A DNA stretch of 58,616 bases, taken from contig UYFQ01000714.1 of the NCBI GenBank assembly GCA_900617105.1, positions 1 to 58,616 on the forward strand, in the 5' to 3' direction. How positions within the stretch are numbered: the first letter of the stretch is position 1; every line of letters starts with the position of its first letter. The notes under the pieces were generated by a model. The model had not been told where the DNA came from. It made no database searches and saw only the letters and a program-made list of their open reading frames with translations. Positions 4,872 to 49,066 of this stretch are shown here, piece by piece. The position numbers and the translations under genes are program-made. Source of the stretch: Hydrurus foetidus (taxonomy: Eukaryota).

Positions 4872-5712
4872 CTCTCAGTCTGTGTAGCGCTACGATTGAA
4901 TTTGTGGAGCATTGGGTGTCTTAGATTGCTCCTATCATGGTATCCGATACTAATTACGAAGTGGACCTTGGACCGCGTCATGGAATCTATCACACCAGAG
5001 TGACAGTAGTGTATCCACCAGACTGTCCTATCATTTTGGATGCTATATTTATGGCCGCGTATAGCGGCGTGTATTGCTTGTGATTTGCACGTATTAGAAT
5101 TATTTTGTTGACAACTGCATTTGAGATAAACGTGGAGACTTCTTTGACCTGCTAATGGTCGCCTTTTCATTTCTTTTCTTCTTTCTTACTCGTAGATCGC
5201 TCCATATTTAGTTCCTTCTCCATGATCTTTGACAACTTCTATTAATCTGAATATCAAAAAGTTCTTTTTTAAAAACCCGAATTTTTCCGGCACAACCTGA
5301 AGCTGGCGAGACTCTGGACTTGAGTGAGAACCTGGATCGGTTACGAAAACAGACGGCACTTTCTGTCCGATCGGAGTGTACGTACTGTACGGAGTGCGCA
5401 GACGTTCGCACAAGCCGAACCGGATAAAGAAACAAATACGAATTCGTTGAAGAACGAAATCCATTTCGCAGCCACGTATTATCTCCATCGGATCCCCAGC
5501 CAGCCTCCTACCTCCTACACGGTGACAATTCTTTCACTGGTGCAAGACCATTCTTCGAGACATTTGAACTTTTGCTGATAACGGAAGACCTCAATTTAAG
5601 GTGGAGGCTTATCCCCAGAACATGTTACTGTAACAGTCAGTATCAGTGAATTCCGTGGACTGTTACGTATCGAAAATCAGACTCGAATCCAGCGACAAAG
5701 CGATAACACAAG

Positions 5713-8700
5713 ATGATCAGTTTCGTGTCTGAGCTTTTCGTCATCGGACTCGTGCTGACAAATAGTTTTCAATGCCACCATCACTTTAAACATCAGCGCC
5801 GGATAAGCAGCAGTAATAGCATTGATCAAAAGTCTGTTCTTTTTATGGCCGTGACATCCGACATAGATGTATCAGTTCCTTCAACTATTCAAGATCCCGT
5901 TAATGGTGGTCCTGAAGTACCATCTTCACCTGCGGCTACAGTATATGTCCCCAGAGTAGGTCCTGCAGTAACGCAGACAGCAGGTCAGCCTCGAACTTAT
6001 GTTCCTAGAAACGTTGCGCAGGAGCCAAGACCATATCAGGGAACAGGTCCGCGTGTATACAAACCTAGAACAGAACAGACAAGCACATCACCAGCGAAAC
6101 CCTCTTACGATGGGAGATCTAATGTTAGAGAGCCATCATCGCAATTTTTGACGATGCCACAGCTGCTTATACGCTATAAGGTGCCCCGCATTAAATCTGA
6201 ATTTAAGATTCAACTGGAAGGACTACAGGAAACATTCAGGGAACAGAGTGATGCCGCTAGAGGCTCATCGTACAGTAGTGGAGGTGGACGATCATACAGC
6301 GACAACAGGGGCTCTGATAGTTTCGACGCTATTTTCGCGCAGAACACTGGTAAAAAAGGAGCTGTAGGAGTGAAAGGCAAGGGCAAAGATGGTGAAGAAG
6401 GTGACGGCAGTAGAAAGGCTAGAAGCACAACATCTCGTAGATCGAATAACGTCGGAGAAGATGAAGAATTTACAGAGGATAGTGGGGAAGAGGAAGTTGT
6501 TGACTACGGCGACGAGGTGAACAGAGGCCTGTCAAGCATTTCAGCTGGTGACTTACAAAGAATGGAACAGGATGGTTATACTCTCGAGGAAATGCAAATG
6601 ACTTTGTACGGAGAGTACGGAATTAAAAGTTCTCTGAGCGCCATTAGACGGAAACTTCAGGAAGATAAGAAGGAGAGAAAGACCAAGGTGCGGACTGGCA
6701 AGACTAGACGGGACCGTACTAAGGCCAGAAACGCTAAGTACAACTCACCCATTGACAGAGGAATCACACTGCCAGAAGGCTCTCTCATTCAAATTATTGA
6801 GCTTGCACGTCTGATGGAGGTTGGTGGAGGGGAGGTGGTGAAGCACCTGATGATCAACATGGGTATCATGGCATCCATGACGCAGAGTATCGAGGTATCA
6901 ATCGCTAAGAAAGTCATCGAAGCATTCGGTAAAAAACTGGCTGGCGATGATGATGAAGAGGATGAGGAGGACGATGATGAAGAGGAAGACGAGGGGGACG
7001 AAGAGACTACCAAGGAAGGAGTGGTTGTTGAGAGAGTGTCCCGTCCTCCTGTGGTTACCATCATGGGTCACGTAGATCACGGCAAAACCACACTATTAGA
7101 TAGCATTAGAAAAACACAAGTAGCGAAAGGGGAGGCAGGTGGCATCACACAGGGCATCAGTGCATTCAAAGTGAAGACCAGCCACGACAACTTTGTTACA
7201 TTCATCGACACACCTGGTCACGCAGCCTTCAGTGAAATGAGAAAGAGAGGAGCTAATGTAACTGACATTGTTATCTTAGTGGTCGCTGCTGACGATGGTA
7301 TCATGGAGCAAACTAAAGAGTGCATTGCAGCAGCCAAAGCTGCTAACTGTCCCATCGTGGTCGTCATCAACAAGGTGTGTATCTCTGCCTCTATCTCTAC
7401 CTTGATCTCTCCCTCTGTCTCTCCGCAGAGCAAGTCACTGCTTTCAACTCGACAAATCGCATGTAAATAATATCAACTTCCTTACTGGCTAAATTAATGC
7501 AACCATCATGTCACGTTAGATTGACAAAGAAGGCGCTGATCCTCAGAAGGTTCTCACAGGACTGATGAGTTACGACATCCTCACCGAGGAGTTCGGAGGT
7601 CAAGTGCAGTGCGCCAAGGTGTCCGCTAAGTCAGGAGAGGGAATTGACGAGCTGCTGGAGAAAGTCCTCCTCCAGGTACGCACTCCACAATCCATCCAAT
7701 ATCTAGCTTCTGTTGCATTGAACTGCTTCAATGACTGCAGGTGTTCATAATCCTCCACTCTGTCACCTAAACTGCCGTAGGCGGAGGTGATGAACTTAAG
7801 AGCACCTGTCGACACACTAGCAGAAGGCACAGTCATCGAAGCGAGAGTCGACAAGGGCATGGGCGTAGTCGTCACTGCACTGGTGCAGAAGGGCAGTCTC
7901 AAGATCGGAGACTACGTGCTTGCAGGTCCGTCATGGGGCAAGGTTAGACGGCTGGTCAGCGATCAGAGAGTGGAGCTGAAGGAAGCGGGACCATCGACAC
8001 CTGTGCAGGTACTCACCACCGCACCTCACCTGCGCGAGTGATCTGTCTGCATATTACCCCGCCATACTGACAACCATCTATTTCTTTGCTCAGATTGTCG
8101 GTATGAGCACAGTCCCAAATGCTGGTGACGTCTTCACGGTGACTGCCAACGAAGCCAGTGCGAGAGAGGTGGCCGAGGCGAGACAGAGACTCACCAGACA
8201 AGCAGCAGGGTCAGCATCGGCAGCAGCCATCAAGGCGAATGCACAGGGCTTCTCCGAGGGCATCATGGACACGAGGGACATCATCAAGGTGCCCCTGCTC
8301 ATCAAGGGTGACGTGTCCGGGTCCGTGGAGGCGCTCAGACAGTCCATCGACAACCTCATGCTCAGCGATGACGAAGCCATTTGCAAGGCAGACATCGTTT
8401 TCTCAGGAGTAGGTGACGTGTCATCATCTGACGTGGCAGTTGCAGCGGCATCGAAAGCAAAGGTCGTTGCCTTCAACGTGGCTGCTGGCTTCAACGCCAT
8501 GGAGGAGGCGAGAGCTAGCAACGTGGAGATTGGGTACTACAATGTCGTGTACGACCTCCTCGACGAAATAGCCGCCACCATCAAGACCACACTCGCACCT
8601 CCTCCTCCTGGAACCTTGATAGGCCGCGCTGAAATCAAGAAAGTCTTCAAGCTGGGCAAGGCAGGCAAGATTGCAGGATGCCTAGTCACTGAGGGCATGT

Positions 8701-8915
8701 TGAAAGCTGAGTCCCAAGTTCGTATTATGAGAGGGAAGAGAAACCCCATCTTCACTGGAACGCTCTCTAGTCTCAAGGTAGTCAAGGACGCAGCTGCCGA
8801 GGTGCCTAACGGCAGCGAATGCGGTATGAGTTTCACCGACTATCAGGATTTCGAGGAGGGAGATATCGTGGAGTGTTTCGTGGGCGGAAACACTGATAAA
8901 GACGATGATAATTAA
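5713..8915 (+). CDS. infB: Translation initiation factor IF-2, plastid-targeted (4 exons)
   Basis: Exons 5713-7374, 7520-7675, 7781-8008, 8094-8915 splice in frame. G-domain motifs [37 protein letters not shown] across intron 1; [18 protein letters not shown]-terminal hydrophobic signal peptide ending TNS-F. Confidence 0.97.
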
Positions 8916-21482: not shown

Positions 21483-22045
21483 GCCCAATAAGAAAGAAGT
21501 TGTTTGTGAGAGGCCCAACATTTATTTCTCGATCCCAACACTTGGAGAAATTTGATGGCTCTTTAGTTCAGAGCCAGTCTCACACTAGACTGTTGAAGGA
21601 CTCGTAGAATTGATAAACTGATAGAGTCGCTGCCAGAGTTCAGATAACAACAGAGTTATCGTCGCTTTTGTGCTTCAATGTCAAGTAAGTCATCTATGAT
21701 CAGTGCTGCTACACCGCACCTATTTATCCCAGAATCTGAGGTAATCTGGGCTCCTAAAGAAGACCTAGATATTACCGTAGCAGAATAAAATATAAAATGC
21801 CCGGTGTTTAGACCGTTCCTTACGGTTTGGGATCTGAGGCTGTTCCTAACGTGACCGACGCAACAAAACGCCGGAGCACCGGAGCAAACTTGCCGCCGCA
21901 GAATTTTGCGTCCCCACCAAAATCTTCCGAATATTGATGTCGGAGAAGTTGTACCGAAGCGCCAAAGCACAGAAGCATTACAGTATATTCATACCGACCG
22001 ACATCAACGGATACTCAATCGCGAACACAGAGTACCAGCAACAGC

Positions 22046-23588
22046 ATGAATTTCCCAGACATTGATGCGAATTATGTCAACGACTGGATTACCTCCATCG
22101 ATGGAATGATATTCTCGTCGAATCTTGTCAGGAATAGAGAAACCAATCCTCCGAAACGAAAGCGTGCGAAACGAACAAGACGTGAAGAATTTGTAAATAT
22201 TGACTACACGAAAACGGCTTGGGGTATGATGATACGCAATCCTTTGGTGAAGTTTCCTGACAACCGATTCGGAAAGCAATTCAGGAGGAGATTTCGCGTC
22301 CCATTCCAGCTTTACGAAATTCTGGTTGATATATGCCGCGACCAAAACATCTTCGGTATAAAGAATACTGCTCGGGTTAAAATTCCCATCGAAATCAAGT
22401 TGCTTTGCTGCCTACGAGTTGTTGGACGTGACGATTGCTGCGATCAGATCGAGGAAATGTCCGACGTGCCTGAGAAAACAGTCTGGTGGTTTTTTAAGAT
22501 TTTTTTGAGGAACTTTCCGATAGCGCTATTTAATAAAGTTATAAAGCTGCCGAAGGAGGGTGATGAATTACTCAAAGTGATGAACGTATACCGTAAGATG
22601 GGATTTCCAGGTGCGGTAGGTAGTGTCGATGCTACGCACATTAGGTGGCATATGTGCCCAGTGGAATATGTCCATGCTGCCACTGGCAAAGAGAAGTATC
22701 CTTCTGTCGCCTTCCAGGTACTAATTCTAATCATTTCTACTAACTTGTTGTTATTACGACTGATTCTAAATTTTTAACTTATATCTGTAGTGTGTGGTAG
22801 ATCATTCACGGCGGATATTGCACGTCACCCGGGGATTCTACGGAGCTACTAATGACATGACAATAACAAAATATGATGATTTCCTAAATGCTTTAAGAAA
22901 GAGAGAAATATACCAAAATGTAACGTACGAAATAATTGATGGCAGTGGAGATACGAAAACTGTAACTGGTGTTTATGTCATTTGTGACGGTGGTTATATG
23001 AAAGATAGCTTCTTAATCGACCCTTATGCTTTTCGATCATCTCGTAGTATAATATACTGGTCTGAATGGTTAGAGTCGCTTAGGAAAGATGTTGAATGTC
23101 TATTTGGAGTCCTGAAGTCCAGATTCCGAATTTTGAGAAATCCTGTTACATTCCATACAATAGATGATATTCAGAATATTATGTTTTGTTGCTGTATACT
23201 TCACAATCTTATAGTTAGTGCAGATGGAATTGACACTGCATGGGAAGATGATGTAGCGTGGGATACATTGGAACCTGATGCTGAATTAGATGACTGTGAC
23301 GAGGACATAGTAGAAGGCCCCATAATTGCTGAGGTGATTCCTATGGCGCTTAATCATGCCACTCCATTACTGAATGATCTTCCAGTGATTTGCCAAATAA
23401 GTAGTGTATGTATGAGAAACTACACAAAGAAAAAGGAAATTTTAGTTAATCATTTCTTACATTGGTATAATCGAGGTCTTCTTTGCTGGCCTAAAAATAT
23501 GGGAGTAGTGCAACGTGGTTTACTACCTATTTTAAATGGCAATGCAGCAATAAATCGTTCAAGACAGCTTGCTGCTGATATACGATAG
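22046..23588 (+). CDS. Harbinger DDE transposase (DDE_Tnp_4/HARBI1-like), 2 exons
   Basis: Exons 22046-22717 and 22791-23588 in frame; FRRRFRVP, GFPGAVGSVDATHI, ICDGGY, RKDVECLFGVLKSRFRIL, CCILHNL. Confidence 0.95.
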
Positions 23589-23820
23589 CATTAAGATAAG
23601 CTTCATGTTTCATATTCGATCAAATCTTTTGTTAAAAATTTAATCATACGCCATTCAACAGAAGTACTTTAAGTCTTTATGAACCCTACATAATGTATGA
23701 AATTATAAAGTTAAACTATTGTATGTGAAACAAAAATAAATGTAAAGTATTGTATGTAAAACAAAAATAGATGTAAAATATTGTATGTAAAAAGCATTAA
23801 GTGAAAACGAAAATAAATTG

Positions 23821-25451
23821 TTAAACTCGAATTACCTCCTCCTCAATGCGACGTTTTCTGCTGTTCTTTTCGTAGACTTCACCCAACTCCTTGACTGCTC
23901 GTGCTAATGCCTCAGGAGGGCCATATGTTGAATAGAAGGTAATCGATTTCTCTAATTCTTGGATAACAGTGAGTGGTGGTGCAGTATGCTGGATGATCTG
24001 AATAGTGTTTACATGGAATATTGCTTAGAAAGTAAATTGCATATTTAGAATAATTAGTAATAAGAGATGCTTAACTCACATTAACCATTGACGTGTTTGT
24101 ATCAGGAGTTGAAAAACTATTTCCTTTTTTTGCTGCACTATCGGCAAGACCTTTAGATCTTGACGCTTCTCTGCGACCATCGCGTGATAGAGCCAAATTT
24201 CGAACGCTCTCAAGGTGTTCATTGATTGTCTTTTTTCCACGCTTCTCAGGATCAAATGCTGCCACGGAATTACTCCCTGTAACGCAAATATATAAACAAA
24301 ATAATGTCAATTATTAGTGTAATGCATTTAATCATTTAATTCAATTGTTATGTTACTCAATTAGTATTTAATTCAATCAAATTGTGATAATTAAAGTATT
24401 CTCACTCAGCTTAATCATATTAGTATATGAATAAAATGATAATACATTTTGATTTAATTTAGCTCTGTCTGATTAAGGGTAATACAAATTAGTAAGTTTT
24501 GTTTCATTTAAAATATTATTCAATTGAAACACATTTTGATCTTATTTGATTTCTTTTTATGTTTTTACCTGCAGGCAATCCACACAAAAAGAATACCATC
24601 CAAATTGCTGGATACCAATCCTCTTCAAATCCACTGTAGTTGAATTCTGTCAGCTTATTGCTGTTCCATGCCATTCTGCTAGCTGCGATAACATTGCTTT
24701 TCGCAAATCCAAGAAACTCTGGCATGGTACGGGATACTCGAAGAAGTCTGCTGCGCTCCAAGTCTTTCGCGTTCGCTTTGTGCAGAGTCATACGGATCTG
24801 CAACAGTACTCCTGCCAGATTTTCGCCTGATTTTGGCTCTCTGAATAGGGGATTATGCACGTTATTCACCGTTCTTTTCGTTTCTTGGTATGTCTCCCAA
24901 ACGATTTTTCCCCGCATGAGTACAGAAGATTCAGCCTCAGATGCGACAACTTTCAGAGCTTTGGAGGCAGTTCTAGTTTCCAAGTTGAATGCTTTGGTAG
25001 TGAAGTTCAGTAAAGACTGATATATGTCCTTTGGAAAGGTTGTGCCTGGTAAATGCACAAATATTCCTATGGTGTTAGCTAGCAGTGCTGCACCGTTGCT
25101 CTCAAGCAACTTCCCGTAAATCGTCATGCACTTCTGATAAATGTCGTTGAGGTTTGTGGTGGGCGAGTCTCCAATTTCTAAACCTACTAAGCAGCAAACA
25201 GTATTGAAGAAGTCTTTTTTGTACTTCTCCATCTTCGACTTGCTTTGCGTGGCTACGGTCAGCATTTTTACAGATTCCGGTTGATCCACAACATTTTCTG
25301 GGTAGCTGAGGAGTTGCAGGATCTCGCTAGACTCGGATTCTGGAGCCAAAGCATCTGCAGAGGTACTTTCTGCGACTGCTGCGGCTGATGAGGCTGGTTG
25401 CTCGTTAGAGTCCTCACTGGCAGATTCGTTTTCGTCGTAGCCTTCGTTCAT
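23821..25451 (-). CDS. Harbinger second (accessory) protein, about 3 exons
   Basis: Long ORF from MNEGYDE (25451) to about 24568, further putative exons about 24277-24080 and 23997-23821; lies inside the TIRs convergent with the transposase; no recognisable domain. Confidence 0.7.
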
Positions 25452-27232
25452 TGCGACTGCTAAGTTCTGTAGATGTTGTGCTGCAATCAGGTGCTTCGGT
25501 TGCTCCAGCGGAAATAGAAATGTCCGACGCAAATTGATTTTGCGTCGGATTTTTCGCCTGTACAGAAGTAACCAAAGCAATATTTTGCTCCGGGCGCTTG
25601 CACCAGTCATTACCAGCGGCTACTTCCTCCGCAAATGTAGCCGAAGTACCGGCGCAAAAGAAAACACCACTTAGAAGTTTGCTCCGGTGCTCCGGCGTTT
25701 TGTTGCGTCGGTCACGTTAGGAACAGCCTGAGAACTGATTTTACGTTTTTTTTTCACAGATCCGAGTTCTCAGTACCCGATCCTTACGGTCCGATGATCC
25801 AGCTTCTAAGATGTTATATTACCGTGTAAGTTGGCTACTCAACTGTAATGGGTATCGTAGACAGTGCTGAAGCTAGTGGAGTTGGAGGGGTTCTTCGAGT
25901 GTCATGAACCTTGTCTGCATACTGCACTTCGGATGATTTTTGAATTGAACTATTCCGCTCGGAGCTGACTAAGGCGTTGAGGAAACAAAATCTAGATAGT
26001 AAATTGGATGATATTTGATTGTACCCCACAAAAGTTTGCAAAGTAAATGCTTATAGTTACTGTAAGAAAATAGGCTGAATTCCTCGTTGGTCGTCCGCTG
26101 ATACTAATAAAAATTCCTGACTACTGGCAGACAGAATTCGACAAAGACAGCATCCAACATAAAGCACAACAGAAAAAATGGCAGCGTTTTCCCTGCAAAC
26201 TTAGGTTGCTATTGTTAGTGGAGAAACGAACAAAGAAACGCCGCGAAATGTCGCGGTGATAAAATGAATGACGGCAGTGTACAGAAGATCACAAATGCAA
26301 GCGGTAAAAGTCGAATGCGCTCCGAGCTCCGTAGCCACTAGTCTGGACTCCTTCTCCGCTCAGCGAAAATCGTTCGCCGCTACCCGGTCCATGTTGCTTC
26401 TAAATTCGGCTACTGAGCTTCGCGCTCCATCGTCGACGCCGCCATTTACGTCATGAAAGACTTCAAGTCAACGCCGCTCAGTAGAGATCCTAAGTAGGTT
26501 TGACAGCATTGTCACGTAAGAAACTTTTCGCGGATGTCTAGGGGTACGTAGTCAGATATTTTGAAGGCGTTTTGAGTCGATGCATCTTCAAATTCCTGCT
26601 CAAAGAGCAGAGTTCTGTCAGTTTCGTACCAGAGATGATAAGCCATCATTGCTGCGCTGCGCAGAAATCCCGCGACGCATTGTGATCAGGGTGACGGCAA
26701 GTGGTATCCTACCGCTCCAGAAGCTGTCGTCGACCTGTTTTGCTTGTAACTCGGACTCTGCAACGACTACTTACTTTCTCAGAAGTCAGCTTTCTCAGAA
26801 GTCGAGTTCTGAGAAAAAGGGCCCATTTTCTCAGAACTCGACTTCTGAAAAAGCTGACTTCTGAGAATTTTAGGTTTTTTTCTCAGAACTCAGACCGTAA
26901 GCGTCGATTTTGGGTTCTGAGAACTCAAATCAGATCTCAGAACTCAGACCATAAGGAACGGTCTTACGTATATTAAACTCCAAGTTTTTAGTGCTATCAC
27001 GTATTTTATAATACGTAAAAGCGATAATTTGAAAAATGATTCTGAGCCTTTCCTCATACTAATTTTTCAAAAATCTAGATTATTGCGCTTTTACGTATTG
27101 AAAATATACGTGTGATGAGTAACAAGTTCAATGAAGCAGTATTCATAGTCATTCAGTGTCGCATAGGATAATGTCGCTGAACAACACACCCAAAACACCC
27201 TCACGACTACCAGTAGGTGATTTCCTCAAAAG

Positions 27233-29485
27233 ATGAGCATCATGGCTGACGATTTACTCGACTTCGAAGTGGAAAATAGCGAAAGATCTCTCGCTGTGGA
27301 AATCATTGATGGACGCAAATGTCAGAACACGAAAAGGCAATACAGACTGAAAGTGGAGAATTTCAAGAAGTGGCTCTGTTCGAAACATCCATTGTGTATA
27401 AAAGAAGACGAAACCATTGATCTCAATGCTGTTGATAGGACAATACTAAAGGAATTCTTTGGCCACATTTGTAAGAAGAAGGACAGAAATGGGATATACT
27501 TTGATCCGATAGTATTTCACGCATTCCAGCATGTGAGTGGTTACAAATCGGCGATCAAAGACTATTATTCCACGCAAGAAGTGAAAATTTCGGATGAGAT
27601 TGAAAAGATGTTAAAACAATTCTTCGAAGGTTATGTGCGGACAATCGCTAAGTTGAAGCAGGATGGTGTCATGGAAATTATTGAAGGAAAACAACATATG
27701 TCTTTCAAGGGATACAAGCTGTTGGCAACTAAAGCTATTGCACAGGATAAAGACTACAACTTGGCTATATTCTCACATCTTTATCTTTTATTATGCTGGA
27801 ATTTGATAGCTCGGTGCATTTCGGTTGGAAGTTTGATGTACAATCACGTTTCTTGGGAAAGCGATTCTCTCGTTGTTGTGTTCCCGTCACACAAGGGCGA
27901 CAATGAAGGACAAAATGCTCTACGAAAGCATGTTTATGCAAACCCTGCTGAGCCTTCCATTTGCCCTATTCTGAGCTTCGCAATCTACATTTTCACCAGA
28001 GGATATGAAAGAGAAGGTTCCAAAATGACCATCTTTGCTGGTGAAGCTGAGAGCCGATTTAGTAAATGGCTGGGCAAAACATGCACAAAGAACGAGGAAG
28101 TCCTGAAGAATCTAGGCATCAACATCTTAAAGATTGGAACGCATTCAGTCAGGAAAGGCATCGCCACTTATTTGAGTGGAACACCCGGCGGCGCATCAGC
28201 GATATCCATTTACCTAAGAGCGGGATGGAGTTTGGGCCCGGTACAGTCACGTTACATACTGGAGGGCGAGGGTGGCGATCAACTATGCGGCAGAGCTGTT
28301 ACAGGCCTTCCACTGACGGAAGTATCCTTTGCAAACTTGCCACCTCATTTCCTACGAACTGAGGAGGAATGTCTATCAGCAGAGCAGTGGGAGGATATCC
28401 TACCAGGGTATTCGACATTCTATCCGTCGACTTTCAGAGAGGTGATTCCATATCTACTGGCGTCGCTCGTATATCATCAGACTTACTTGGCTAGTCTACA
28501 GGAATCGAATCCTAGACACCCTCTTTTCCTCCAACAAGTATGGGTCAGTGGAACTCTCCTACGTCTGAAGGATAAGGTGGGAGCGGGGTGCAATCGACAT
28601 CCTGTGAGTAAGATGACGGCTACTGGAATCCCGCCCCATCTAGTTATAGCCAACAGACTCGTTGATCTCCAGTCAGATTTGCTGTCGATGAAAGAGCAAA
28701 TCATTCACAAGTTAGAGCAGCTACATGAAACTCTAAAGCACTGCATGCTGGAGAATTTTCAGATCGATGGAACGGTCCCGATTACTCGCCACGAAATGCA
28801 AGACATGATGAAAGCATCCATTGATGACCTTAAGTGTACCATTGAGACATCTATGCGATCCATGTCATCAAGAGACAATGACGCATCAGTGCCAGTAAGC
28901 GCTGGAATGACAGTCAGTAACAATCAAGTAAGCGACATTGCCAATTACACTTCCTGGACTTGGGGCGGGCAGATTCATCCTGTACCTGAAGGTTTCAACT
29001 TTCCAGTGTAAGCCATACACCGCTGTTAGTGCAATAAATAATAGACTGTACTACGCAACTATCATGACGCTATCATCACCACTGTTATTGATATCAGTTC
29101 CACCGTACGGAGCCTGTGGGATTTATGGTGGTTTGGAAACCCTTCAAAGAATATGGCGCCCTACAGAACTCATCGATCAATGGACTATAGAGAGAAGAAG
29201 CATCTCTCATATTTGTCAAGAGCGAGGATAGTAATGTCAACCATGGAGAGTTTGCTTCTGGAGGATGCACCAGACTTGAAGTTGTCGAAGATCACAATCG
29301 CCCAAATTCGAGTTCAATTTGCTGCAGGATTTGACAAGCTCTCTTCATGGCTATCACCATCTCTGTCACTTTTGGAGCTCGACATGAGGCACAATGGAGA
29401 TGCCATGTATGTCTCGTTCTATGATCGAATACTCAGGCAGAAGAAAAAGAGGAAACTCGCGGAGACTCAGGAAGTGAATGATTGA
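27233..29485 (+). CDS. Crypton tyrosine recombinase (stramenopile CryptonS-like), 2 exons
   Basis: Exons 27233-29007 and 29098-29485 in frame. Catalytic pattern R (WNLIARC), HxxR (GTHSVRKG), W (RAGWSLG), Y (QSRYI), then GDQLCGR..GLP; C-terminal WGG..HPVPEGF..LWDLWWFG. Confidence 0.92.
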
Positions 29486-37660: not shown

Positions 37661-39721
37661 GATGAGAACACGCGTTAAATTATCCGCTACAGATAAATTT
37701 CCTCTGTACCTTTTCTAGAATCATGTCGATCTGATGGTGACAATGACCGCTTTCTCGCGCTTTGATTTCCTTCTGTTACGACGTTGATTCAGTGACAAGA
37801 CACGGAGGAGCAAGGATTTTGTGTACTAACGGGTATACCCGTTAGCAAAAGCTCTGTTAGATCCAGTGCGATGCTAGTTAATGGGTCCGACATTTAGAGT
37901 TGTCACCGACCCACCTTCCATGGAAGCCTAATCTCAGTCAAACTTCTGACTGAAACCGGATGGAGAATTTTTTTGTTAAATTCAAATCAGAACAAATGAG
38001 GCAGTGCCACCGGTGAAGTATGAGGATGCCTCTTGTAGAGGACAATGTATGACCTATCAAACTACGGAAGGATTCTGCTTATCAAATCACAATCACCTGT
38101 GATTTGGGAGAGTTGAGAGTTGAAAAAATGGTTCGATCGTCGTTCTTCAATTTACCATTTCGCGATTAGAGTGGTTGCGATTTTCGTTATTTGACCTTTT
38201 TTTTCAAATATTTAAAAAAAAAACCCGAAAAAATATTCAAATATTCTTGAATCCCAGCGGTGGCGGAATCTTGAACCCAACCGTTATCCTGAACCCACGA
38301 TCTTTCAAAACTGAACGTTAGCAACCTATTATTTTCGAAATATTCATTACTTCTTGCAACATTTTCAAAAGCAGATCACAATTCGAGATTAGCAGTTGCC
38401 TAGATCACTTCGTTAGCTATCGAGCGGTATCTTTCATTTCCTCTTTTGCGTTCTTCTACTTCTGGTTAGAGTGTCCTTCGCCAACGAGATTGACGGCAAC
38501 TTTTACGATTCAAAAATGTTGAAACTAACGAGATATCAGGACTTATCTGATTGGGTACTGCTGGCATCAGACCAGAAAGAGCTTTGTGAGAACATCTTGG
38601 GAAGTGGGATGAGTGCTTATGCATGGTCGCAGCGACATAATAGGAATTATCAAAGCATCAAAAGATACATGAGAAAGTACAGACTGTGGAAATCTACTGG
38701 AATGGACACCTTTCATGATTCTTACGGGGGACGTCCACCAATGATCGATGACGCTGGAATAATCAATATTAGAAACGATTTGAGAGCTAATCTGAACTCA
38801 AGCACTTGTCAGAACTCAATGACGAATCAGTTTCAAATTCGAGTTGAGAAAGAGATTGCTGAGACGAAAAAGAGGAGAGGGTTTGCGGCGACTGAGTGCA
38901 CTGTACCCAAGAAGTTTGTCAGGGTATTCAAAGCAACGAACAGCTTTACTGACGTCGTGTGTCAATTTAAGACTCATGCTCGTATATTTGCAGAAAGTGA
39001 CCCACGCAATCTATATTCCTTCGCTATGATGAATCAGGCTTTTCTTTCTGGAATCGATGCATGCTGCGTATTCAACTGGGATGCAACACAGTACTGTGTG
39101 AATGCAGAGGGCTTTGCAACAATCGTGAAGTGTAAAAGCGAAGGACGCGATGTAGTTCCAACATCTTTGAGCGCAGGAGGACTTGGATTTGCTATCAAGT
39201 ATTATCACTTTCACAATGCTAACGGTGACGTCGCTCCAGCTGTTTTCATTGTTGCCGACGATACAATGTCTGAGGATGATCTATTTTGGGAAGAGATCAC
39301 TGGGCTTAGTCATACACAATTGGTAGATGCTAGTGGATATCTGGTCTTCACCAAAACGAGGAACTGCAATGCAGCATTCTACCGGTGGTATGCATTTCAC
39401 GTTGTGGCACCCTTCGTACTAAAATGCCGGAATATTCACAAAAGCGTGAATGCAGACGGAACGCCAATGAGAGCATTCGTAGTATGCGACGGTGAACCCT
39501 CGCAAATCCAAGTATTTCAGGAGAGTGGTCTCTTGCAACTGATGAGCGAGACCTTGATCGACTTTGGAAAATCACCAGCGTCCTGTAGCGCCATAACTCA
39601 AGCATCTGACGACAGTGACTTCTTCAATGGATCAAAGAAGAAATTGCAGAGAATTCGCGAGACAGATTACATTGATAAAGGGCTTAATGCAAGATTGAAG
39701 GAAGTCGTGGGTAATCGTGTT

Positions 39722-40123
39722 TGTTATAGCTTCCACTATTTCATAGTTTCCACTATATTGCATTCTCACACGTACGTTACATGTATGTACGTACATAGTA
39801 CACATTGCTTGCAGCCACAGGTTTTTCGGTACCAGCTTTTCGGTACCAGTTTTTGGTTTCTCGAATACTTCAACTTGCAACTCTCGTAGTCAGCTTCTTC
39901 GATACACCTCTCACATCTTTAAATCTTTAAACAAAACACCAAACCCAAACCGGCTTCTTTTAGCCAAACATCCTGTCCAGCGACTCTCTTGTTGCTGAAC
40001 GATCTGTGGCCGTTAGCCGCTCATCCTAGTTTGCAGTTCTCGCAAACTGATCAACAGCCCTTGCAGTTGATCCAAGAAACCCGTCCTCTCGTTTTAGCTT
40101 CTGTAAGCTACGTGGACAGCATA
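39722..40123 (+). repeat. 5' LTR
   Basis: Direct repeat of 47218-47619; C at 39885 vs T at 47381. Confidence 0.97.
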
Positions 40124-40331
40124 AAAGTACTTTTCTCGTTTACACAAGAACGATCAGACAAATCTCCAGTTCAGAATAAGACTCTTCAAGCCAGACGACG
40201 GTCGTAGTTTGCGAATCTGGCCAAACAAGAGCTGATACTGTTCGGGTGAGATTCAACTCCTTCAGTGACATTTCACGAAGCAAAAAATATTTGTACAAAA
40301 AATATCCTTCTCTTCTTCGAAGAAGAAATCC

Positions 40332-42059
40332 ATGTCGAAAGAAGTTCCTACTGTTCCGAAGAACTCGCCGAAGTTGGATCCTGGCAAGTCTACTACTAAA
40401 GATGAAACTCCAATCATTCGAAAGAATAACGACGATGCCGAATTCCGCGCCATGGTTACGCAATTCTGTCAGCAGAGTGTCAGAAATCAAGAATCCAACA
40501 GAGAAGACATCACAGAGTTGCGTGCAGCCATCGCTTCGTTATCAATGAAACCTGGCGATGAAAGTCCATACTCTCTTGGTGATATTGAGACACCTGTTGC
40601 GGATCGTTCGAAAAGCGACCGACGTTCCACCATTTTCTTTGGGCAATCATTGTCTCCAGATGATAAGCAAACCTCCTCCCAACAACCACGCATCCAGATA
40701 TTGCAAAATGATATCGTCTACGATAAGGAATTGAAAGTTTCCTCACTAGAAGGACTTCAATACCTTGCAAAACAGATGCAGCTACTAGCTTCAAAATATC
40801 CTGGTCGCGACATCAAGATGGCTCACATGGTAGCTTACAACTTAAGGCCTCATATCGTAGCCAACTGGAACTCCTTCCGTTTCCGACAGTCACAAGTGGA
40901 TGGTCGTGAGTATGAAGAAGTAATGGTTGAAGACTGGCTTTCCTTCACAAATCCATCTGTTCAACAGATTCTAATCGAAGCTGCGAGACCACGCACAAAG
41001 GAGTTGTATTCGCGGGAACTCATTCTATTCCTTGGCAAAGGAATTCCACAAAGCCCCGACATCAACACCGAGAATTTCTCGAAAATATTCTACGGCCCGC
41101 TCATGAGATCTCTCAATGATTTGCTCAGTCTGTACAACCTCCTATCTGAGGAGACATCTAAGCTCAGCAACAACGCTGCCAAAATGCCCGTTGGTACCTA
41201 TGGTACAAAAGATAGCCCTGGCCATATCTCACTCTGGATTATATCACTCGGAAGTCAAAAAGATTCAATCCTACAATGGCTAGGCAAAGATGATTTAAGC
41301 AAGCATAAAACGCTTGAGTCGGCTGTCAAGTTCGTCCGTTTCAAACTCATGGAAGGACGTTCCAACAGTGAAGCCCGGCAAGATTTTGATTCCCAATTAA
41401 CGCCTATGCGTTGGAATGAATTGCGTTCCACTCAAGGAGAGTCTCACAGCAGACATCAAATACCAGCCTTAAATCCATCTCATCAACGTGTTGCTGAGAT
41501 CTCGAAGACCCGTCATCATTTTCGTACCAACTTTTCAGCGCTTGCCTCCTCAACCGACACAAACATGGATCACCAAGACAATCATGATGATACTGGTTAT
41601 AACAAAATTGACGAAGACTATGATTATGACGACATAGAAGACTCTGACTACTCTGTCTACAACAGCCATCAGAATTCTACTGATTTAATTAATGAACGCA
41701 ATCCATCCTCCCCAGACGAACCTTCATTAGCTGTGCTCACTACCACCAATCCCTCACGTGCTGCTATTGCGGCTACTTTTCGTGGTTATTGCTGTGAGCT
41801 GTTTGTATTCGGAAAATGCTCCCAGTCAAAGAATTGCACGAACGATCATTCAACGGCAGCTCAGGAGCGTTGTCTGGCTTCCTTTAATCTGCTCAGCAGA
41901 CGAGAGATTGCTGCTCATGGTCAGCTACCACCATGGTCCCAAACCTCAAATACACAACCTCGTCCTGATTACCGCAAAGGGCTCACGACACATCAGAGTT
42001 CCAATAAATTCGAACCCTTACATGGGAAAACCTTCTACCCTCCAATGAAATCAAATTAG
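40332..42059 (+). CDS. gag: Gag-like protein with CCCH zinc finger
   Basis: 575-aa ORF directly after the 5' LTR; C-x7-C-x5-C-x3-H near the C-terminus. Confidence 0.85.
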   Translation: MSKEVPTVPKNSPKLDPGKSTTKDETPIIRKNNDDAEFRAMVTQFCQQSVRNQESNREDITELRAAIASLSMKPGDESPYSLGDIETPVADRSKSDRRSTIFFGQSLSPDDKQTSSQQPRIQILQNDIVYDKELKVSSLEGLQYLAKQMQLLASKYPGRDIKMAHMVAYNLRPHIVANWNSFRFRQSQVDGREYEEVMVEDWLSFTNPSVQQILIEAARPRTKELYSRELILFLGKGIPQSPDINTENFSKIFYGPLMRSLNDLLSLYNLLSEETSKLSNNAAKMPVGTYGTKDSPGHISLWIISLGSQKDSILQWLGKDDLSKHKTLESAVKFVRFKLMEGRSNSEARQDFDSQLTPMRWNELRSTQGESHSRHQIPALNPSHQRVAEISKTRHHFRTNFSALASSTDTNMDHQDNHDDTGYNKIDEDYDYDDIEDSDYSVYNSHQNSTDLINERNPSSPDEPSLAVLTTTNPSRAAIAATFRGYCCELFVFGKCSQSKNCTNDHSTAAQERCLASFNLLSRREIAAHGQLPPWSQTSNTQPRPDYRKGLTTHQSSNKFEPLHGKTFYPPMKSN

Positions 42060-45000
42060 GGAATTGCGAGGCCCTCATTGACTTCCCTACAGTCAGAGGA
42101 TCACCTCGCCCCTTCTTCCATAGTCTTTGATCCTGAAGCTATTCTCTCTCAAGCACTCCTCTCACAACTGGCTTCTAGTACGTCTGTACCCGCACAAGCT
42201 CTTTGTCAGCCTTTCATTCGCGCTGGTTCAGTGCAATCTAAGGACGGACTCAACCCATTCCATTTCGCTCGTGGTCTATTGGACACTGGCGCACAAGGCA
42301 GTAACTTTGTTTCCGGTACACTAGTTCTCAGCCTACCTAAATCGCATACGCTTGCTACTCGACCAACGGATCGCATTGTCCGCCTTGGTGATGCACGTCA
42401 CATTGCAGTTCAATCTGAAATCCAACTCCTGGTCTGTTTGACTGATTCCTCTGGCAACGATCACGCTCACATACTATGGTATAGTGTTCTTGAGGATCTC
42501 AGTCATGATCTTATCATTGGTCTCGTCGACCTTGTCGGACCTTTCTACGATGTATTCGCTGATGCGATAGCTTCTTCTCGAAAATCTGCAATCGGAGCTA
42601 TAGGAACTAATCTTCACGCTTTAACCGCCACAATCCGTGAATCCCTACCTTGTGCTCATCTTGGCAACACAATTCGCACAGCGCATAACCTTAGTTCCCA
42701 CAGTCGATCGTACGATCTCCGAAAGCGTGCCATCTGTACTAGCTCCAATACTGATATCTACGCTGTTGCTCTGCATGACGGTTCCAGCACTGATGTCCTT
42801 TCACACCCGCGGCATGGACTAGTGTATGCTGACAACCGCGTCGAACTACAGCACAATGCACTCTCATCATTACTGACTCAACCGTCATCAGGAGATATCC
42901 TACCACCTTGGTCGCAACCAATTGATCAAATTGCACTCGAAGAATCCGAGACGCCTGATCCAACAAGTTTCCCTGACGATATACTCATGCTTCTCACTGT
43001 CTCAAAAGATGAGGCTCGTCATGAATACAATAAAGATTTAGAGACTCACGTCATGCCAGAAATGAGTGCCGCTCATCCCAACATCTATCGCCTTCTCACG
43101 TCTGACCTGGCATATGATGTCTTTGTTCCTCAAACCTGGACAGGTATACATATGCCTCCATACCATCTGACCACAAAACCTGGTCTCCCTGAGTTCCTGA
43201 AAGCTCACACCCGCCCAATTCGCGATATGCTCTACCAACATGCCAAAGCAGAATTTGATCGGATGAAAACGTACTTCTACGTGAAATCAAATTCACCAAT
43301 CGCTTGCCCGTTAGTAGTTGCACCTAAAGCCACAGCACCATTCATCCGCTTGTGTGGTGACTACAGGCCTATCAACCCCTTCATATCCATTCCACAGGAA
43401 CCCATTCCACATGTACAGCAATCCTTAGCAAAAGCAGCCGGATGGAAAGTCTTTGTAGATCTTGACATGACAAACTCATTTCATCAAATCCCACTTGACG
43501 AAGCAAGTTCCAACCTTCTGTCTGTATCTACACCATGGGGTCTGTACCGTCCCCTCTTCCTTCCTGAAGGTGTAGGACCAGCATCAGGAATCCTCCAATC
43601 AATCGTCCGCCGAGTATTTATCGACTATGAAGACTGGATCATTGTCATCTTCGACAATTTTCTTATCCTCGCCTCTGACTACGCTGATGCAGCCAAGAAA
43701 CTTGACCTTGCTCTCCGACGTTGCCGCGAGCATGGACTAGTGCTCAAAATGAAGAAGTCTTGGATTGGTTCCACAAATGTAACATTTTTCGGCTATGACG
43801 TACATCCAGGAACCTGGAGCCTCTCTCAGTCTCGGAAAGATGCCATCAGTGCTCTTGTCTTTCCGACAACGCAAAAGCAAATGCAAAGCTTTCTAGGTGC
43901 TGCAAACTTTTTCCACACTCACATCCCCAACTATGCCTCATGGGCATCCGATTTATACGAGTGTACTGCAGTGTCTTTTGACTGGAAGTCTCTGACATGG
44001 CCAAAAGACTATCGCAACCTATTCGAAACATTCAAGACAGCAATCCAAGCTTCAGTCATACTACACTTCCCAGACTACAACCTTCCCTGGATCATCAGAT
44101 CCGACTCCTCCGACAACGCTGTGGGTGCTGTCCTCTTTCAAGAATTCACTGATTCATCCGGTACCATCATCCATCAGCCGATCACATTCGCATCTCATAA
44201 ATATTCCGGCGCCGCAGTAAACTGGGATACCTACAAAAAAGAAGCATACGCAATTTACTATGCCGTGTGTCAATTCGGGTATTACTTAACCGGCAAAACC
44301 TTTGTTGTAGAAACTGACCATCGCAATTTAGTATGGATGGAGACAAGCCTTGTTCCTATCATCATACGCTGGCGTGTCCTCCTTCAAAGCTACAGCTTTC
44401 AGATCAAACATATCCCTGGTAAAGAAAATGGTGTTGCCGACTGGATATCCCGTATGCATCCTCAATCGACACCATCTTCAACCCTATCGTCATCGGAGAA
44501 TACACTCAGTATTCAAGAAATGTTCGCATCTGTTCACGGTCATCGATCACTCCATCACGGAGCCAAACGAACTTACCTGACTCTTTGTCAACGTTATCCT
44601 GGACATGGCATCGCACTCCGCACCATCCAAGACCTTGTAGCTGAGTGTCCGATTTGCCAAAAGGATCGAATCCCTTTTGCCACTGTACCTTCTCCTTCAC
44701 TTACTGAAACAATCCTTCACCACGTTCGCGCCGTCGGTATGGATCATGTTACAGTTACACCTCCTGACGAAGATGGTTATATCGGATTGTTACTACTTGT
44801 AGAACATGACACAAAATTCCCCCGTGCTTATCCAGTACGCGACTACACTGCTCCTACTGTCGCAACTATTCTGTTCCAACATTACTGTACCTTCGGTGCT
44901 TATGATGCACTATACTCTGATCCTGGCAGTGCATTCACTGCAACAGTCGTCCAACAGCTCAACTCTTGGATTGGTATTCCCCATCGTATATCAGTTATTG

Positions 45001-45854
45001 GACGTCACGAATCTAACGGAACAGAACATGTAAATGGTATCTTCATGGGTCACTTACGCCGTCTAGTTCATGACGAACGACTCACTCATAAGTGGGCATC
45101 TGACACTATCTTACCTCTTATCAATCATGCACTAGCCACCACACCAAATTCCGAACTTGGCGGTCTCGCTCCAACAGAGCTGAAGTTCGGTACAATGGAT
45201 CATGCCCGCTTTCAACTACCACCGCCGCTTCCACCAGGTCATTCCTACGGTGAATACGTTAATCAACTAGACATAAATTTGTCAATAGTCCGTGCCATCA
45301 CAACACAATATCAACACGAATTGCGACAAAAACGTCAAGCATCCACAACAAATCAAAACATATATCAAAAAGGCGATCTCATATTGTGGAATCCAAAAGA
45401 ACATGACAAGGCGTTTCGGTCATCAAAACTTGCACCAAAACTATTAGGCCCATACACTGTAATCACACAAGACGGAAATAATATTACCTGCCTGCACACT
45501 CAGCTCAATACAGAACACGTCTTCCACACCGACCGCATTTCCCCCTACATCGGCACAATGAGATCAGCACAAAAGATTGGACTACTTGATCGAGAAGAAT
45601 ACATCGTCAAATCAATTGTCGCTCATCGTGGAAAATGGACTCACCTGAAATCAATTGAGCTCCTCGTCCACTGGCACGGCTACACCTCCGATTCCGATTC
45701 CTGGGAGCCTTGGACTTCGCTCCGACTTGTCAAGGCCCTCCACGAGTACCTACAAAAGATAGGGCATACAAATAAAATCCCACTCCCCTACCGACACGAT
45801 TACCTCCCTCAACAAGGTATCGATACTACTCCAAAAGCCCACAAGGGTGCTTGA
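42060..45854 (+). CDS. pol: Pol polyprotein (protease, RT, RNase H, integrase, chromodomain), in frame with gag after a single TAG
   Basis: LLDTGAQG; RLCGDYRPIN, DLDMTNSFHQI, IFDN; SDSSDNAVGAVL, ETDHRNL; HHCC and GMDH/YSDPG/NGTE; EYIVKSIVAH..VHWHGY..DSWEP. Confidence 0.96.
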   Translation, partial: GIARPSLTSLQSEDHLAPSSIVFDPEAILSQALLSQLASSTSVPAQALCQPFIRAGSVQSKDGLNPFHFARGLLDTGAQGSNFVSGTLVLSLPKSHTLATRPTDRIVRLGDARHIAVQSEIQLLVCLTDSSGNDHAHILWYSVLEDLSHDLIIGLVDLVGPFYDVFADAIASSRKSAIGAIGTNLHALTATIRESLPCAHLGNTIRTAHNLSSHSRSYDLRKRAICTSSNTDIYAVALHDGSSTDVLSHPRHGLVYADNRVELQHNALSSLLTQPSSGDILPPWSQPIDQIALEESETPDPTSFPDDILMLLTVSKDEARHEYNKDLETHVMPEMSAAHPNIYRLLTSDLAYDVFVPQTWTGIHMPPYHLTTKPGLPEFLKAHTRPIRDMLYQHAKAEFDRMKTYFYVKSNSPIACPLVVAPKATAPFIRLCGDYRPINPFISIPQEPIPHVQQSLAKAAGWKVFVDLDMTNSFHQIPLDEASSNLLSVSTPWGLYRPLFLPEGVGPASGILQSIVRRVFIDYEDWIIVIFDNFLILASDYADAAKKLDLALRRCREHGLVLKMKKSWIGSTNVTFFGYDVHPGTWSLSQSRKDAISALVFPTTQKQMQSFLGAANFFHTHIPNYASWASDLYECTAVSFDWKSLTWPKDYRNLFETFKTAIQASVILHFPDYNLPWIIRSDSSDNAVGAVLFQEFTDSSGTIIHQPITFASHKYSGAAVNWDTYKKEAYAIYYAVCQFGYYLTGKTFVVETDHRNLVWMETSLVPIIIRWRVLLQSYSFQIKHIPGKENGVADWISRMHPQSTPSSTLSSSENTLSIQEMFASVHGHRSLHHGAKRTYLTLCQRYPGHGIALRTIQDLVAECPICQKDRIPFATVPSPSLTETILHHVRAVGMDHVTVTPPDEDGYIGLLLLVEHDTKFPRAYPVRDYTAPTVATILFQHYCTFGAYDALYSDPGSAFTATVVQQLNSWIGIPHRISVIGRHESNGTEHVNGIFMGHLRRLVHDERLTHKWASDTILPLINHALATTPNSELGGLAPTELKFGTMDHARFQLPPPLPPGHSYGEYVNQLDINLSIVRAITTQYQHELRQKRQASTTNQNIYQKGDLILWNPKEHDKAFRSSKLAPKLLGPYTVITQDGNNITCLHTQLNTEHVFHTDRISPYIGTMRSAQKIGLLDREEYIVKSIVAHRGKWTHLKSIELLVHWHGYTSDSDSWEPWTSLRLVKALHEYLQKIGHTNKIPLPYRHDYLPQQGIDTTPKAHKGA

Positions 45855-45908
45855 ATATGGAAAGCCCAACACCTGAGGCGAACCCCTAATAGTAAGTCCT
45901 TGTTAGTT

Positions 45909-46580
45909 TTACACAACAACATTCTCATCAATTAAATCAAACGCAAAGCAATGTGATATACAATAAAATCGCTGCGCTACATTCAACACACTGAATAATT
46001 TAACGCCTCTGCAACCATTATCATACATATTGATCACACCATCACAAACAATTATACTCATAGCATGGTTTGGAAGTAGCATATTCTGCTTCTCCCATAC
46101 CTTAGCCTTCAACGTGTCACCCTGTGCTCTCTTGATTTGCTTCAATTTACTCGTATGAGTAGGCCCTGTGCTCCTTGAAGCTCCAAAAATAATGTATCTT
46201 CCATTCACAGTCAATTTCTTCTTCAACTGCTTTGGTCCGAATCTATTATTGAATTTGATCTCACGAAACTTATATGTCCAGTTTTCACCCCTAACACTTG
46301 CCACCTCGCAAACATGACGTAAGAAATCGCGAACTTCATCTCTACCACAACCATCTGGCAACACCGTAATGTTGTTGGCTGTCATGAATACATCCCTTGG
46401 ATCCTTGGCTCCATTAACCTACACCATTTACATATTATACATATCAGCAAATAACTCAAAATTATTCAATTCAACGATTTTTCGACTTACCGTCACCATC
46501 GCCTGCTGCTTCGCGTTCAGTGCTGACATGATCGCAAATAATACGCACATATTCTCGTCTAAACTCCACTTGAACTCCAT
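45909..46580 (-). pseudogene. Antisense accessory ORF of the chromovirus, putative papain-like cysteine peptidase fold, two in-frame stops
   Basis: MEFKWSLDENMCVLFAIMSAL... and MTANN...NHAMSIIV...MYDNG are in the same frame, separated by TAA (46430-46428) and TAG (46421-46419). Confidence 0.5.
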
Positions 46581-46872
46581 ATTGTACACACTCCACCGCA
46601 AGAATACGAAATTCGCCAAAAATTGTACGTAGTATCCCCAATAAATACGAAATTTTTCAAAAATCGTACGCAGTATCCACACTGAATACAAAAAATTTCT
46701 CCCGACACGTTTCACCGATCTTCTCACACGTTTCACCGATCGGCAATTATTGATTTTTTCTCCAAAACGGCAGAGACAAATAAAAAATCGAAGTTCGAAT
46801 AAATTGTGATTGATTACAGATTCTGAACCGCAATTAAAAACTACATCTGAATCCATCTCTCAAAACTCTCAC

Positions 46873-46926
46873 AACTTCAACTTCAACTTCAACTTCAACT
46901 TCAACTTCAACTTCAACTTCAACTTC
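46873..46926. repeat. (AACTTC)9 hexamer array in the retrotransposon 3' region
   Basis: Nine perfect units. Confidence 0.95.
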
Positions 46927-46984
46927 AACATGAAAACTAAAACATGATTCTAGGCAAATGAAGGTCCCCTGTTCATATTAAACT

Positions 46985-47053
46985 GGTTTCGGTGAAGCTA
47001 TCGAATCTTAATTTCACACTTTGAAGGTCGTGAGTTCGATTCTCACATATAAC
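46985..47053 (+). other. Degenerate tRNA-Val(CAC)-like sequence inside the retrotransposon
   Basis: ggtttcg start, ttCACac loop, aggtc variable region, perfect T-arm gtgag-ttcgatt-ctcac; D-arm and acceptor stem degenerate. Confidence 0.55.
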
Positions 47054-47217
47054 TACTGCTAAAATGAAACCGCCAGTAATATTTTTCTTACCTCATATCT
47101 AATTATGCTTCTACAGCGATACAACAATGTTTGCGAACTCACTGAGATGTAACAACATATTTTGTATTTATTCATTTTTAACTCCCATAGTCTCACATTT
47201 AACCGCGAAAGGGGTGG

Positions 47218-47619
47218 TGTTATAGCTTCCACTATTTCATAGTTTCCACTATATTGCATTCTCACACGTACGTTACATGTATGTACGTACATAGTACACA
47301 TTGCTTGCAGCCACAGGTTTTTCGGTACCAGCTTTTCGGTACCAGTTTTTGGTTTCTCGAATACTTCAACTTGCAACTCTTGTAGTCAGCTTCTTCGATA
47401 CACCTCTCACATCTTTAAATCTTTAAACAAAACACCAAACCCAAACCGGCTTCTTTTAGCCAAACATCCTGTCCAGCGACTCTCTTGTTGCTGAACGATC
47501 TGTGGCCGTTAGCCGCTCATCCTAGTTTGCAGTTCTCGCAAACTGATCAACAGCCCTTGCAGTTGATCCAAGAAACCCGTCCTCTCGTTTTAGCTTCTGT
47601 AAGCTACGTGGACAGCATA
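47218..47619 (+). repeat. 3' LTR
   Basis: Direct repeat of 39722-40123, preceded by the purine tract. Confidence 0.97.
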
Positions 47620-49066
47620 TGTTGATCAGGATGGCAATCCAAGACTAACTAGTGCAAAGAAGACGCTAGTGTGCAATTCGCTACAGCAAGTTGTATACTC
47701 AATCAAGCATGTTCTAACACCAGAGATAGTGAAGACTGGTTACAAGCGCATTGGACAACACCCCTTATCCTTTCTTACAACCATGGGACGCTGCACGAGA
47801 CCAATCTCTGCTCGGGATATGGCCACTATGCAAGAGGCTATACCGGATATGGTCGCCATATTTAGAGCTACTGGGAATCTAACCGAGGAACAGATGGATG
47901 CAGCAGGGATTCTAAGCGTGAACGATGAAGCATCCAATTCAAGACCCAAAGACGACCGTCCATTGCATCAGCAAAGGTCAGTTATCATGAATGCTGATGA
48001 CTGCGTCGCCAAGTATAGATCCTATCAGAGCTACAAAGCAGCAGAACCAGAACGAAGAGCTACCGCAATGCAGCAACGGCAAGCTGCAAAAGAGATTCGA
48101 GAGAAGAAAGCAGATGGAATTAAGGCTCGAAAGGATATCAAGGAGGCAGAAAAATTACGACGGTCCAACCTTACGCCAGAGGAGAGGAGAGCAGAGGATA
48201 AGATCAAGCGTGCAGCGAATAAGGAGGCCAAGCGAGTCGCTGCTGCTCAAAATGGAGTGCAGGAACTTCCTGAAAACGATCCTGACGGAGTAATCGATAG
48301 CGACGATGATGACAATTTATTTGACGAGCAAGAAATCGCTGAGATAAGTTCATTCTTGCCTGTTGCAAATATTTGATGTTCTGCGCCAGATGATTAACCC
48401 GTGTTCGAAATTATCCCGCGAGAGCGGATTAGCTTAACAAATTGCGTGGGAAGTTATCATGATTGTAGAGCAGTCCTCTGATTTTTTTGCCCATTTTGTT
48501 TTGTTCGTAGCCCTCATCCTCGCTTCATAATTGTCTGCTGAATTTTTGCTGTTGAGGACCGATCTGATCCCAAGATATTAAACAAAATAAATTCCAAATT
48601 CAGCTCGTTTCGTCCCGAAAATTCATCCGCAACTGAGGATGACGATGGCGAACTAGATTGCCAAGGGGCGTCCCGATTGGTTCAGAATCAGTTGTGTTGT
48701 GGTAGTAATTGTAGCTGCCGTGGTGAGAGTTGGGCAGGTTGAAAATATGTGCGGTGGGTTCAGGATAACGGTTGGGTTCAAGATTCCGCCACCGCTGGAA
48801 TCCCCCACTCAAAATAAAAAAAAGTCGAATCCGTCAAAATGTGAAATTCGACTTTTTTCATTCTGTGAAAATCACTGATCTCATTTTTATTTTCCCTGAG
48901 GGTTGAATTTTCCCTTCGCAACCACTTCGGGAGGGCATTTGAAAAGTTGAATATTCAAAAAGTAAAAAAGTCAAATAAAGAAAATCGCAACCACTCTATT
49001 CTGCTGGCATATGCTTGGCATAATTTAGCCCTCCGGGGATTTTGGATTATGCTAGCATTATGCCTG

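Follow-up and report, generated by a model that had tools for sequence, protein, structure and literature searches.

The reverse transcriptase (RT) of an LTR retrotransposon within the 58,616-nt stretch of Hydrurus foetidus DNA analysed here (the window) reads IFDN in place of YxDD at its catalytic motif C and, judging from its homologues, this xxDN state is the fixed condition of a large and old lineage and not the defect of one copy. The enzyme is very probably a working RT, whether compensated for the asparagine or tolerant of it, as far as its conservation can tell. Two further active-site residues, D467 in motif A and E503 in motif B, are co-fixed with the asparagine and likely compensate for it.

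Motif C of the reverse transcriptase

The codons ATC TTC GAC AAT, preceded by att gtc, are the exact sequence at 43641-43658 and encode I530-F531-D532-N533, in frame within the 1264-aa pol open reading frame (42060-45854). In a HMMER alignment with solved structures, IFDN fell column for column onto YLDD of Ty3 and YVDD of both CaMV and foamy virus, with DLDMTNSFHQ aligned to motif A and LPEGV to motif B. The exact bases, the frame and the structure alignment agree with the original prediction, which had read the motif at the expected distance from motifs A and B.

Four runs, each from a different study (X1, X6, X8 and X9), gave contigs that span the motif. The spanning X1 contig showed no differences at all; the 11 differences of X6 and the 4 of X8, all itemised, lay outside it, and none of the 15 itemised differences of X9 (out of 17) fell within it. 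Since contigs of four studies span the motif without a listed change there, the reading is not an assembly error, a possibility that had been singled out for checking. Together with the clade-wide sharing described below, these contigs rule out, for all practical purposes, both an assembly error and a private mutation.

It had also been claimed that YxDD is near-invariant among LTR-type RTs. For the tyrosine this did not hold: the first position was Tyr in only 57 of 121 DD controls (a distant animal clade and not the sister group) and never in the DN clade, and since IADD, VADD and LADD motifs are moreover described for Kuafuorterviruses in the available text of PMC11673190, the loss of the tyrosine is ordinary. 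The D-to-N change at the second aspartate is one that stops transposition of Ty1 and Ty3.

Structure and insertion of the element

The RT is encoded by an intact, recently inserted 7.9-kb Ty3/gypsy LTR retrotransposon, whose features are collected in Table 1. Its two LTRs differ by a single mismatch in 402 bp (39885/47381). Their TG...TA ends and the 4-bp duplication are fixed by an empty-site joint that links 39717 to 47620 through an overlap of 4 letters and was found in runs X1, X2 and X5; the canonical TG...CA ends, which are common but not strictly defining for Ty3/gypsy elements, are absent. The repeat at another locus (L011) likewise ends in TA. As seen from the near-identical LTRs and the empty sites, the element was recently mobile. 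The earlier argument that several substitutions were unlikely in a copy with near-identical LTRs turned out to be beside the point, the asparagine being ancestral to a clade that has diverged to ~40% identity.

The pol frame is ordered protease-RT-RNase H-integrase. Pfam matches to RT, RNase H and the chromodomain at the integrase's C-terminus (PF00385, E 3e-6) were above the cut-off and those to the integrase domains below it. There is no env, and additional frames were only short and antisense; the antisense frames had no match in 84 loci and the 169-aa one had no Pfam hit. By sequence, the RT is closest to Ty3/gypsy RTs, with Ty3 (PDB 4OL8) the best among the solved structures (E 7e-36), and its Atlas neighbours were clusters of RVT_1 and RT_RNaseH; on this basis the element is classified as Ty3/gypsy (Metaviridae) with a chromodomain.

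Table 1 Features of the LTR retrotransposon and of the DNA transposon that hosts it (positions in the window)
Feature	Position	Strand	Basis
DNA transposon hosting the LTR element, 48-bp inverted repeats	38251..48801	.	repeats, own empty site
4-bp target-site duplication TGTT	39718..39721, second copy 47620-47623	+	LTR ends and empty-site joint
5' LTR, 402 bp, ends TG...TA	39722..40123	+	repeat comparison
12-bp palindrome at primer-binding position	40123..40134	+	sequence
Gag-like open reading frame with CCCH-type finger, ending at in-frame TAG	40332..42059	+	position; no Pfam hit
In-frame gag-pol stop followed by a stem-loop (predicted readthrough signal)	42057..42119	+	folding z -2.4
pol: protease D75; RT; RNase H D682, E728, D753, D794; integrase HHCC, D895, D954, E989; chromodomain	42060..45854	+	open reading frame, Pfam, alignment
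RT motif A, D467-L-D469 (D469 catalytic, D467 extra acidic residue)	43458..43466	+	alignment, clade columns
RT motif B Glu503 (PEG), at Ty3 Phe / foamy virus Gln position	43566..43568	+	clade versus control columns
RT motif C, I-F-D532-N533	43647..43658	+	sequence, homologue surveys
169-aa antisense open frame, pol to 3' LTR interval	45912..46418	-	open reading frame only
Polypurine tract adjoining 3' LTR	47207..47217	+	sequence
3' LTR, 402 bp	47218..47619	+	repeat comparison

The frame upstream of pol is, from its position, presumably gag. Its C-terminal part carries a CCCH finger instead of the usual CCHC knuckle, an arrangement found in 38 of 43 fused gag-pol frames of the clade, with CCHC in none of the 43. 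Among the 53 loci of at least 4 kb (within L001-L064), a same-frame upstream reading frame of at least 300 aa was split from pol by TAG or TGA in 31, and fused to it in 5. A hairpin of varying sequence was predicted 3' of the stop. Of 30 picked cases, 22 had z <= -2 at this place, compared with 11 of 30 immediately upstream and 2 of 30 farther downstream. Gag-Pol is thus likely to be produced by structure-stimulated readthrough of the in-frame TAG, for which the stem-loop would be the signal. An alternative genetic code at this stop was considered and rejected, because TAG and TGA alternate between families at one and the same place, the hairpin follows them, and some members have fused frames.

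No tRNA-type TGG primer site was found at the primer-binding position. Nor did a site for self-priming in the Tf1/sushi mode come to light, the longest complement within the LTR being 6 nt.

In run X5, which may itself be the source of the window, the contigs of the element had a depth of 2433-2886 compared to 127 for the flank, a ~20-fold ratio that suggests about 20 element copies, although depth does not give a true copy number. Support at the RNA level is thin: one metatranscriptome gave at least three contigs on the element, all short and of low depth, and the RNA runs X19 and X20 contain only short low-depth pieces.

The element lies in the long open reading frame of a DNA transposon, which measures 2.6 kb without the insert. 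Across the empty site of the LTR element this frame is open for 685 aa, both halves being without Pfam match, and the transposon's own empty site is present in X5 and X2. As the transposon is multi-copy, the empty sites of the LTR element may correspond to other transposon copies and not to alleles.

Other loci in the window include a Harbinger-like DNA transposon (21833-25733), whose inverted repeats are 59 bp long and whose DDE_Tnp_4/Plant_tran transposase is spread over two frames; another reading frame lies on its opposite strand. A split IF2 gene (5707-8915) has a signal-like N-terminal stretch that suggests import into a complex plastid and an ochrophyte host. Taken with the habitats of the runs, this gene points to a freshwater alga. 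Finally, a 596-aa open frame (27221-29011) has no Pfam hit, and we take it to resemble the gene of a tyrosine-recombinase (Crypton-type) transposon.

Extent of the DN clade and selection on it

A word-index protein search found 442 proteins, of which the best 120 (63-100% identity) were used: motif C read IFDN in 119 and IYDN in 1, so that all were xxDN. An exhaustive search returned 37,965 representatives of 50% clusters with E <= 0.001, of which 384 had E <= 1e-30. Among the best 150 of these, reaching down to ~40% identity, 148 were xxDN, one had the motif deleted and one read YMDD; the latter, 28% identical, belongs to an animal K02A2.6-like family and is unrelated. Metagenome loci gave the same picture, with 76 of 80 covering the motif and reading DN in 73, DH in 1, a broken motif in 2 and DD in none. 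Close relatives with YxDD, which the original prediction had set against its own claim of a naturally functional DN-type RT, were thus absent among the 120 close homologues and the 76 motif-covering loci. Their absence, together with purifying selection and recent mobility, supports that claim strongly, if indirectly.

Of 55 intact RTs (the window and 54 loci), 28 encode the asparagine by AAT and 26 by AAC. Purifying selection on the RT is strong, with a median dN/dS of 0.021 and a maximum of 0.063 over 17 non-independent pairs with pS 0.05-0.6. In 90 long reading frames, D469, D532, R430 and K566 were invariant or nearly so, and the steric-gate Phe and finger Arg of the RT were conserved. The catalytic residues of the other enzymes were also retained in these frames (protease 81/83; RNase H 89/89, 88/88, 87/87 and 85/85; integrase 86/86, 84/84 and 84/84), from which we conclude that the clade is autonomous.

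An AlphaFold model of RT-RNase H (mean pLDDT 96) showed an ordinary RT-RNase H fold. Among solved RTs, it matched CaMV, MLV and Ty3 at TM 0.81-0.86, CaMV and MLV ranking just above Ty3. In a quick-search tree of 71 of 271 rows, 56 DN rows were split from 15 DD rows with an SH-aLRT of 100; the DD rows being distant animal controls and not the sister group, this tree neither dates nor roots the change to asparagine.

A few records stood apart. Five of the best 120 close relatives (P0074, P0076, P0079, P0080 and P0082) have an added PF03372 exo/endonuclease/phosphatase domain in the RT frame. A DN-type element on a 5.8-kb contig was filed in a giant-virus bin (L082), likely by misbinning, while two loci filed as bacterial plasmids (L083 and L084) carry eukaryote-type DD LTR-retrotransposon RTs and are probably contamination.

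Residues co-fixed with the asparagine

Position 467, two residues before the motif-A aspartate, was D in 137 of the 149 clade members, the others having N (7) or E (5). In the 121 DD controls it was led by V (49), K (47), L (10) and I (5), with 10 rows not itemised; the equivalent residue is T in Ty3 and foamy virus, S in CaMV, and S and T in two more DD RTs. Position 503 was E in all 149 clade members, as opposed to F (76), Y (44) and M (1) in the DD controls and Q in foamy virus. These two further DD RTs and the three solved ones (Ty3, CaMV and foamy virus) are without both clade residues. The columns neighbouring 467 and 503 vary freely within the clade. The seven representatives with Asn at 467, six of them in open frames longer than 1200 aa, are scattered over the tree, and a carboxylate at this position is therefore not required. 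Another point against compensation is that D-x-D in motif A also occurs together with YADD in group II intron RTs. The original prediction had missed the co-fixed motif-A aspartate and had taken LPEGV as a landmark only, though its glutamate is the most diagnostic partner of the asparagine.

The AlphaFold model places D467 on the strand of motif A, and N533 where the second strand of motif C begins. In HIV RT, the equivalents of D467 and N533 are, as we understand its geometry, neighbours on one face of the sheet; from this and from the strand order, a contact between D467 and N533 would be expected. Position 503 we take to be that of HIV Q151, which agrees with the alignment to PQG of foamy virus. 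In the available text of PMC2850067, Q151 is part of a hydrogen-bond network that joins the 3'-OH of the dNTP and the leaving pyrophosphate, beside R72. The portion of PMC3388302 at hand places V108 and D186 in one ligand site, which is consistent with, and no proof of, proximity of D467 and N533.

A possible mechanism and its alternatives

What the asparagine costs is known from yeast elements. As described in the available text of PMC2148107, Ty1 D211N polymerises in vitro with kpol down 223-fold, prefers Mn2+ and binds pyrophosphate ~170-fold tighter; its transposition is blocked, and RNase H suppressors rescue 5-10%. For Ty3 D214N, the accessible part of PMC5371799 reports an enzyme that is active in vitro, though of poor processivity, and a mutation that is lethal in vivo. 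Since asparagine alone is insufficient in these elements, a clade that has long lived with it would need compensation. The reading we favour, which we consider moderately probable, is that the enzyme polymerises with its two core aspartates, D469 and D532, in a site rebuilt around the asparagine and compensated by D467 and E503. From its place on the motif-A strand, next to the hairpin of motif C, D467 would form a hydrogen bond with N533, keep the amide oxygen of N533 pointed at the catalytic metal or the primer end, and usually make up for the lost charge. Since position 467 admits D, N and E alike, this residue would be a hydrogen-bond partner that orients the asparagine and not a strict metal ligand. 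E503, in the pocket of the incoming nucleotide beside the invariant R430, would restore the turnover and pyrophosphate release that fail in Ty1 D211N. We propose more tentatively, and with slightly less than even confidence, that in this lineage the third catalytic carboxylate's work is no longer done within motif C, with Asn533, the motif-A Asp and the nucleotide-pocket Glu together forming a natural intragenic suppressor of the D-to-N change.

Co-fixation of D467 and E503 with the asparagine rests on one evolutionary origin and cannot show causation, and the two residues could be mere lineage markers in a functional enzyme that tolerates asparagine in the way of birnaviral polymerases and the GDN polymerases of mononegaviruses; such an enzyme might use Mn2+ or be slow, with a matched, weaker RNase H. 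The Mn2+ preference of Ty1 D211N and its partial rescue by RNase H mutations (available text of PMC2148107) fit such an enzyme, as do the altered metal use and lowered rate that accompany natural asparagine in viral RNA polymerases (PMC4634563, in part) and the seven members without an acidic residue at 467. However, E503 is universal in the 149 members and position 467 is limited to D, N and E, both being active-site positions whose neighbouring columns are free, and the RNase H is fully conserved at its catalytic positions, the only ones to which this point applies. We regard simple tolerance as a serious possibility, and as clearly the less probable of the two. A weak or dead RT, with the elements copied in trans by a DD-type RT and the protein retained to scaffold RNase H and integrase, would accord with the lethality of the same substitution for Ty1 and Ty3 transposition in vivo (available parts of PMC2148107 and PMC5371799). 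Against this, the best-ranked relatives down to ~40% identity include no DD helper, the RT evolves at a dN/dS of ~0.02, and the two other aspartates, the steric-gate Phe and the finger Arg are all conserved, making copying in trans very improbable.

Comparison with known systems

The element shares with Ty3 of S. cerevisiae the PR-RT-RH-IN order, LTRs, a polypurine tract and the fold, at ~23% identity. It differs in having IFDN where Ty3 has YLDD, D-L-D instead of T-L-D and PEG instead of PFG, as well as LTR ends of the TG...TA type, no tRNA-type primer site and a CCCH instead of a CCHC finger. With the Tf1/sushi chromoviruses Tj1 and Tosmo it has in common the C-terminal chromodomain and the in-frame stop between gag and pol (10.1101/2022.12.06.519325, in part); it differs from them in that no self-priming complement was found. 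The laboratory mutants Ty1 D211N and Ty3 D214N carry the same substitution at the same position and retain polymerase activity in vitro; they cannot transpose, whereas here the asparagine is the selected wild type. Natural asparagine at the second motif-C position is also found in the GDN of Mononegavirales and in birnavirus RdRPs (available text of PMC4634563), although these are RNA polymerases and not RTs.

According to the accessible part of the same review (PMC4634563), all reverse-transcribing viruses keep the two aspartates. The canonical D...xxDD triad is absent from the DN clade, in which the third position is Asn throughout. No account of a DN-type LTR lineage turned up in the literature outside subscription journals, supplements, Repbase and GyDB, and a family deposited without comment is possible; the available portions of PMC2774666, PMC3846280 and PMC4207942 contained nothing on DN-type RTs.

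Implications

What the second aspartate of YxDD does has been an open question ever since the Asn mutants of Ty1 and Ty3 were found to polymerise without transposing. A large natural clade that transposes with asparagine points to two residues as candidate suppressors and allows the question to be tested in yeast: if the carboxylate has been relocated, transplanting the D and the E together would rescue Ty3 D214N. The DN clade breaks the rule of three aspartates for LTR-type RTs, and annotation pipelines would call its elements dead. DN-type RTs may differ from other RTs in metal use, fidelity or nucleotide selection. If our reading is true, they would represent an undescribed major lineage of LTR retrotransposons, comprising at least 148 clusters at 50% identity.
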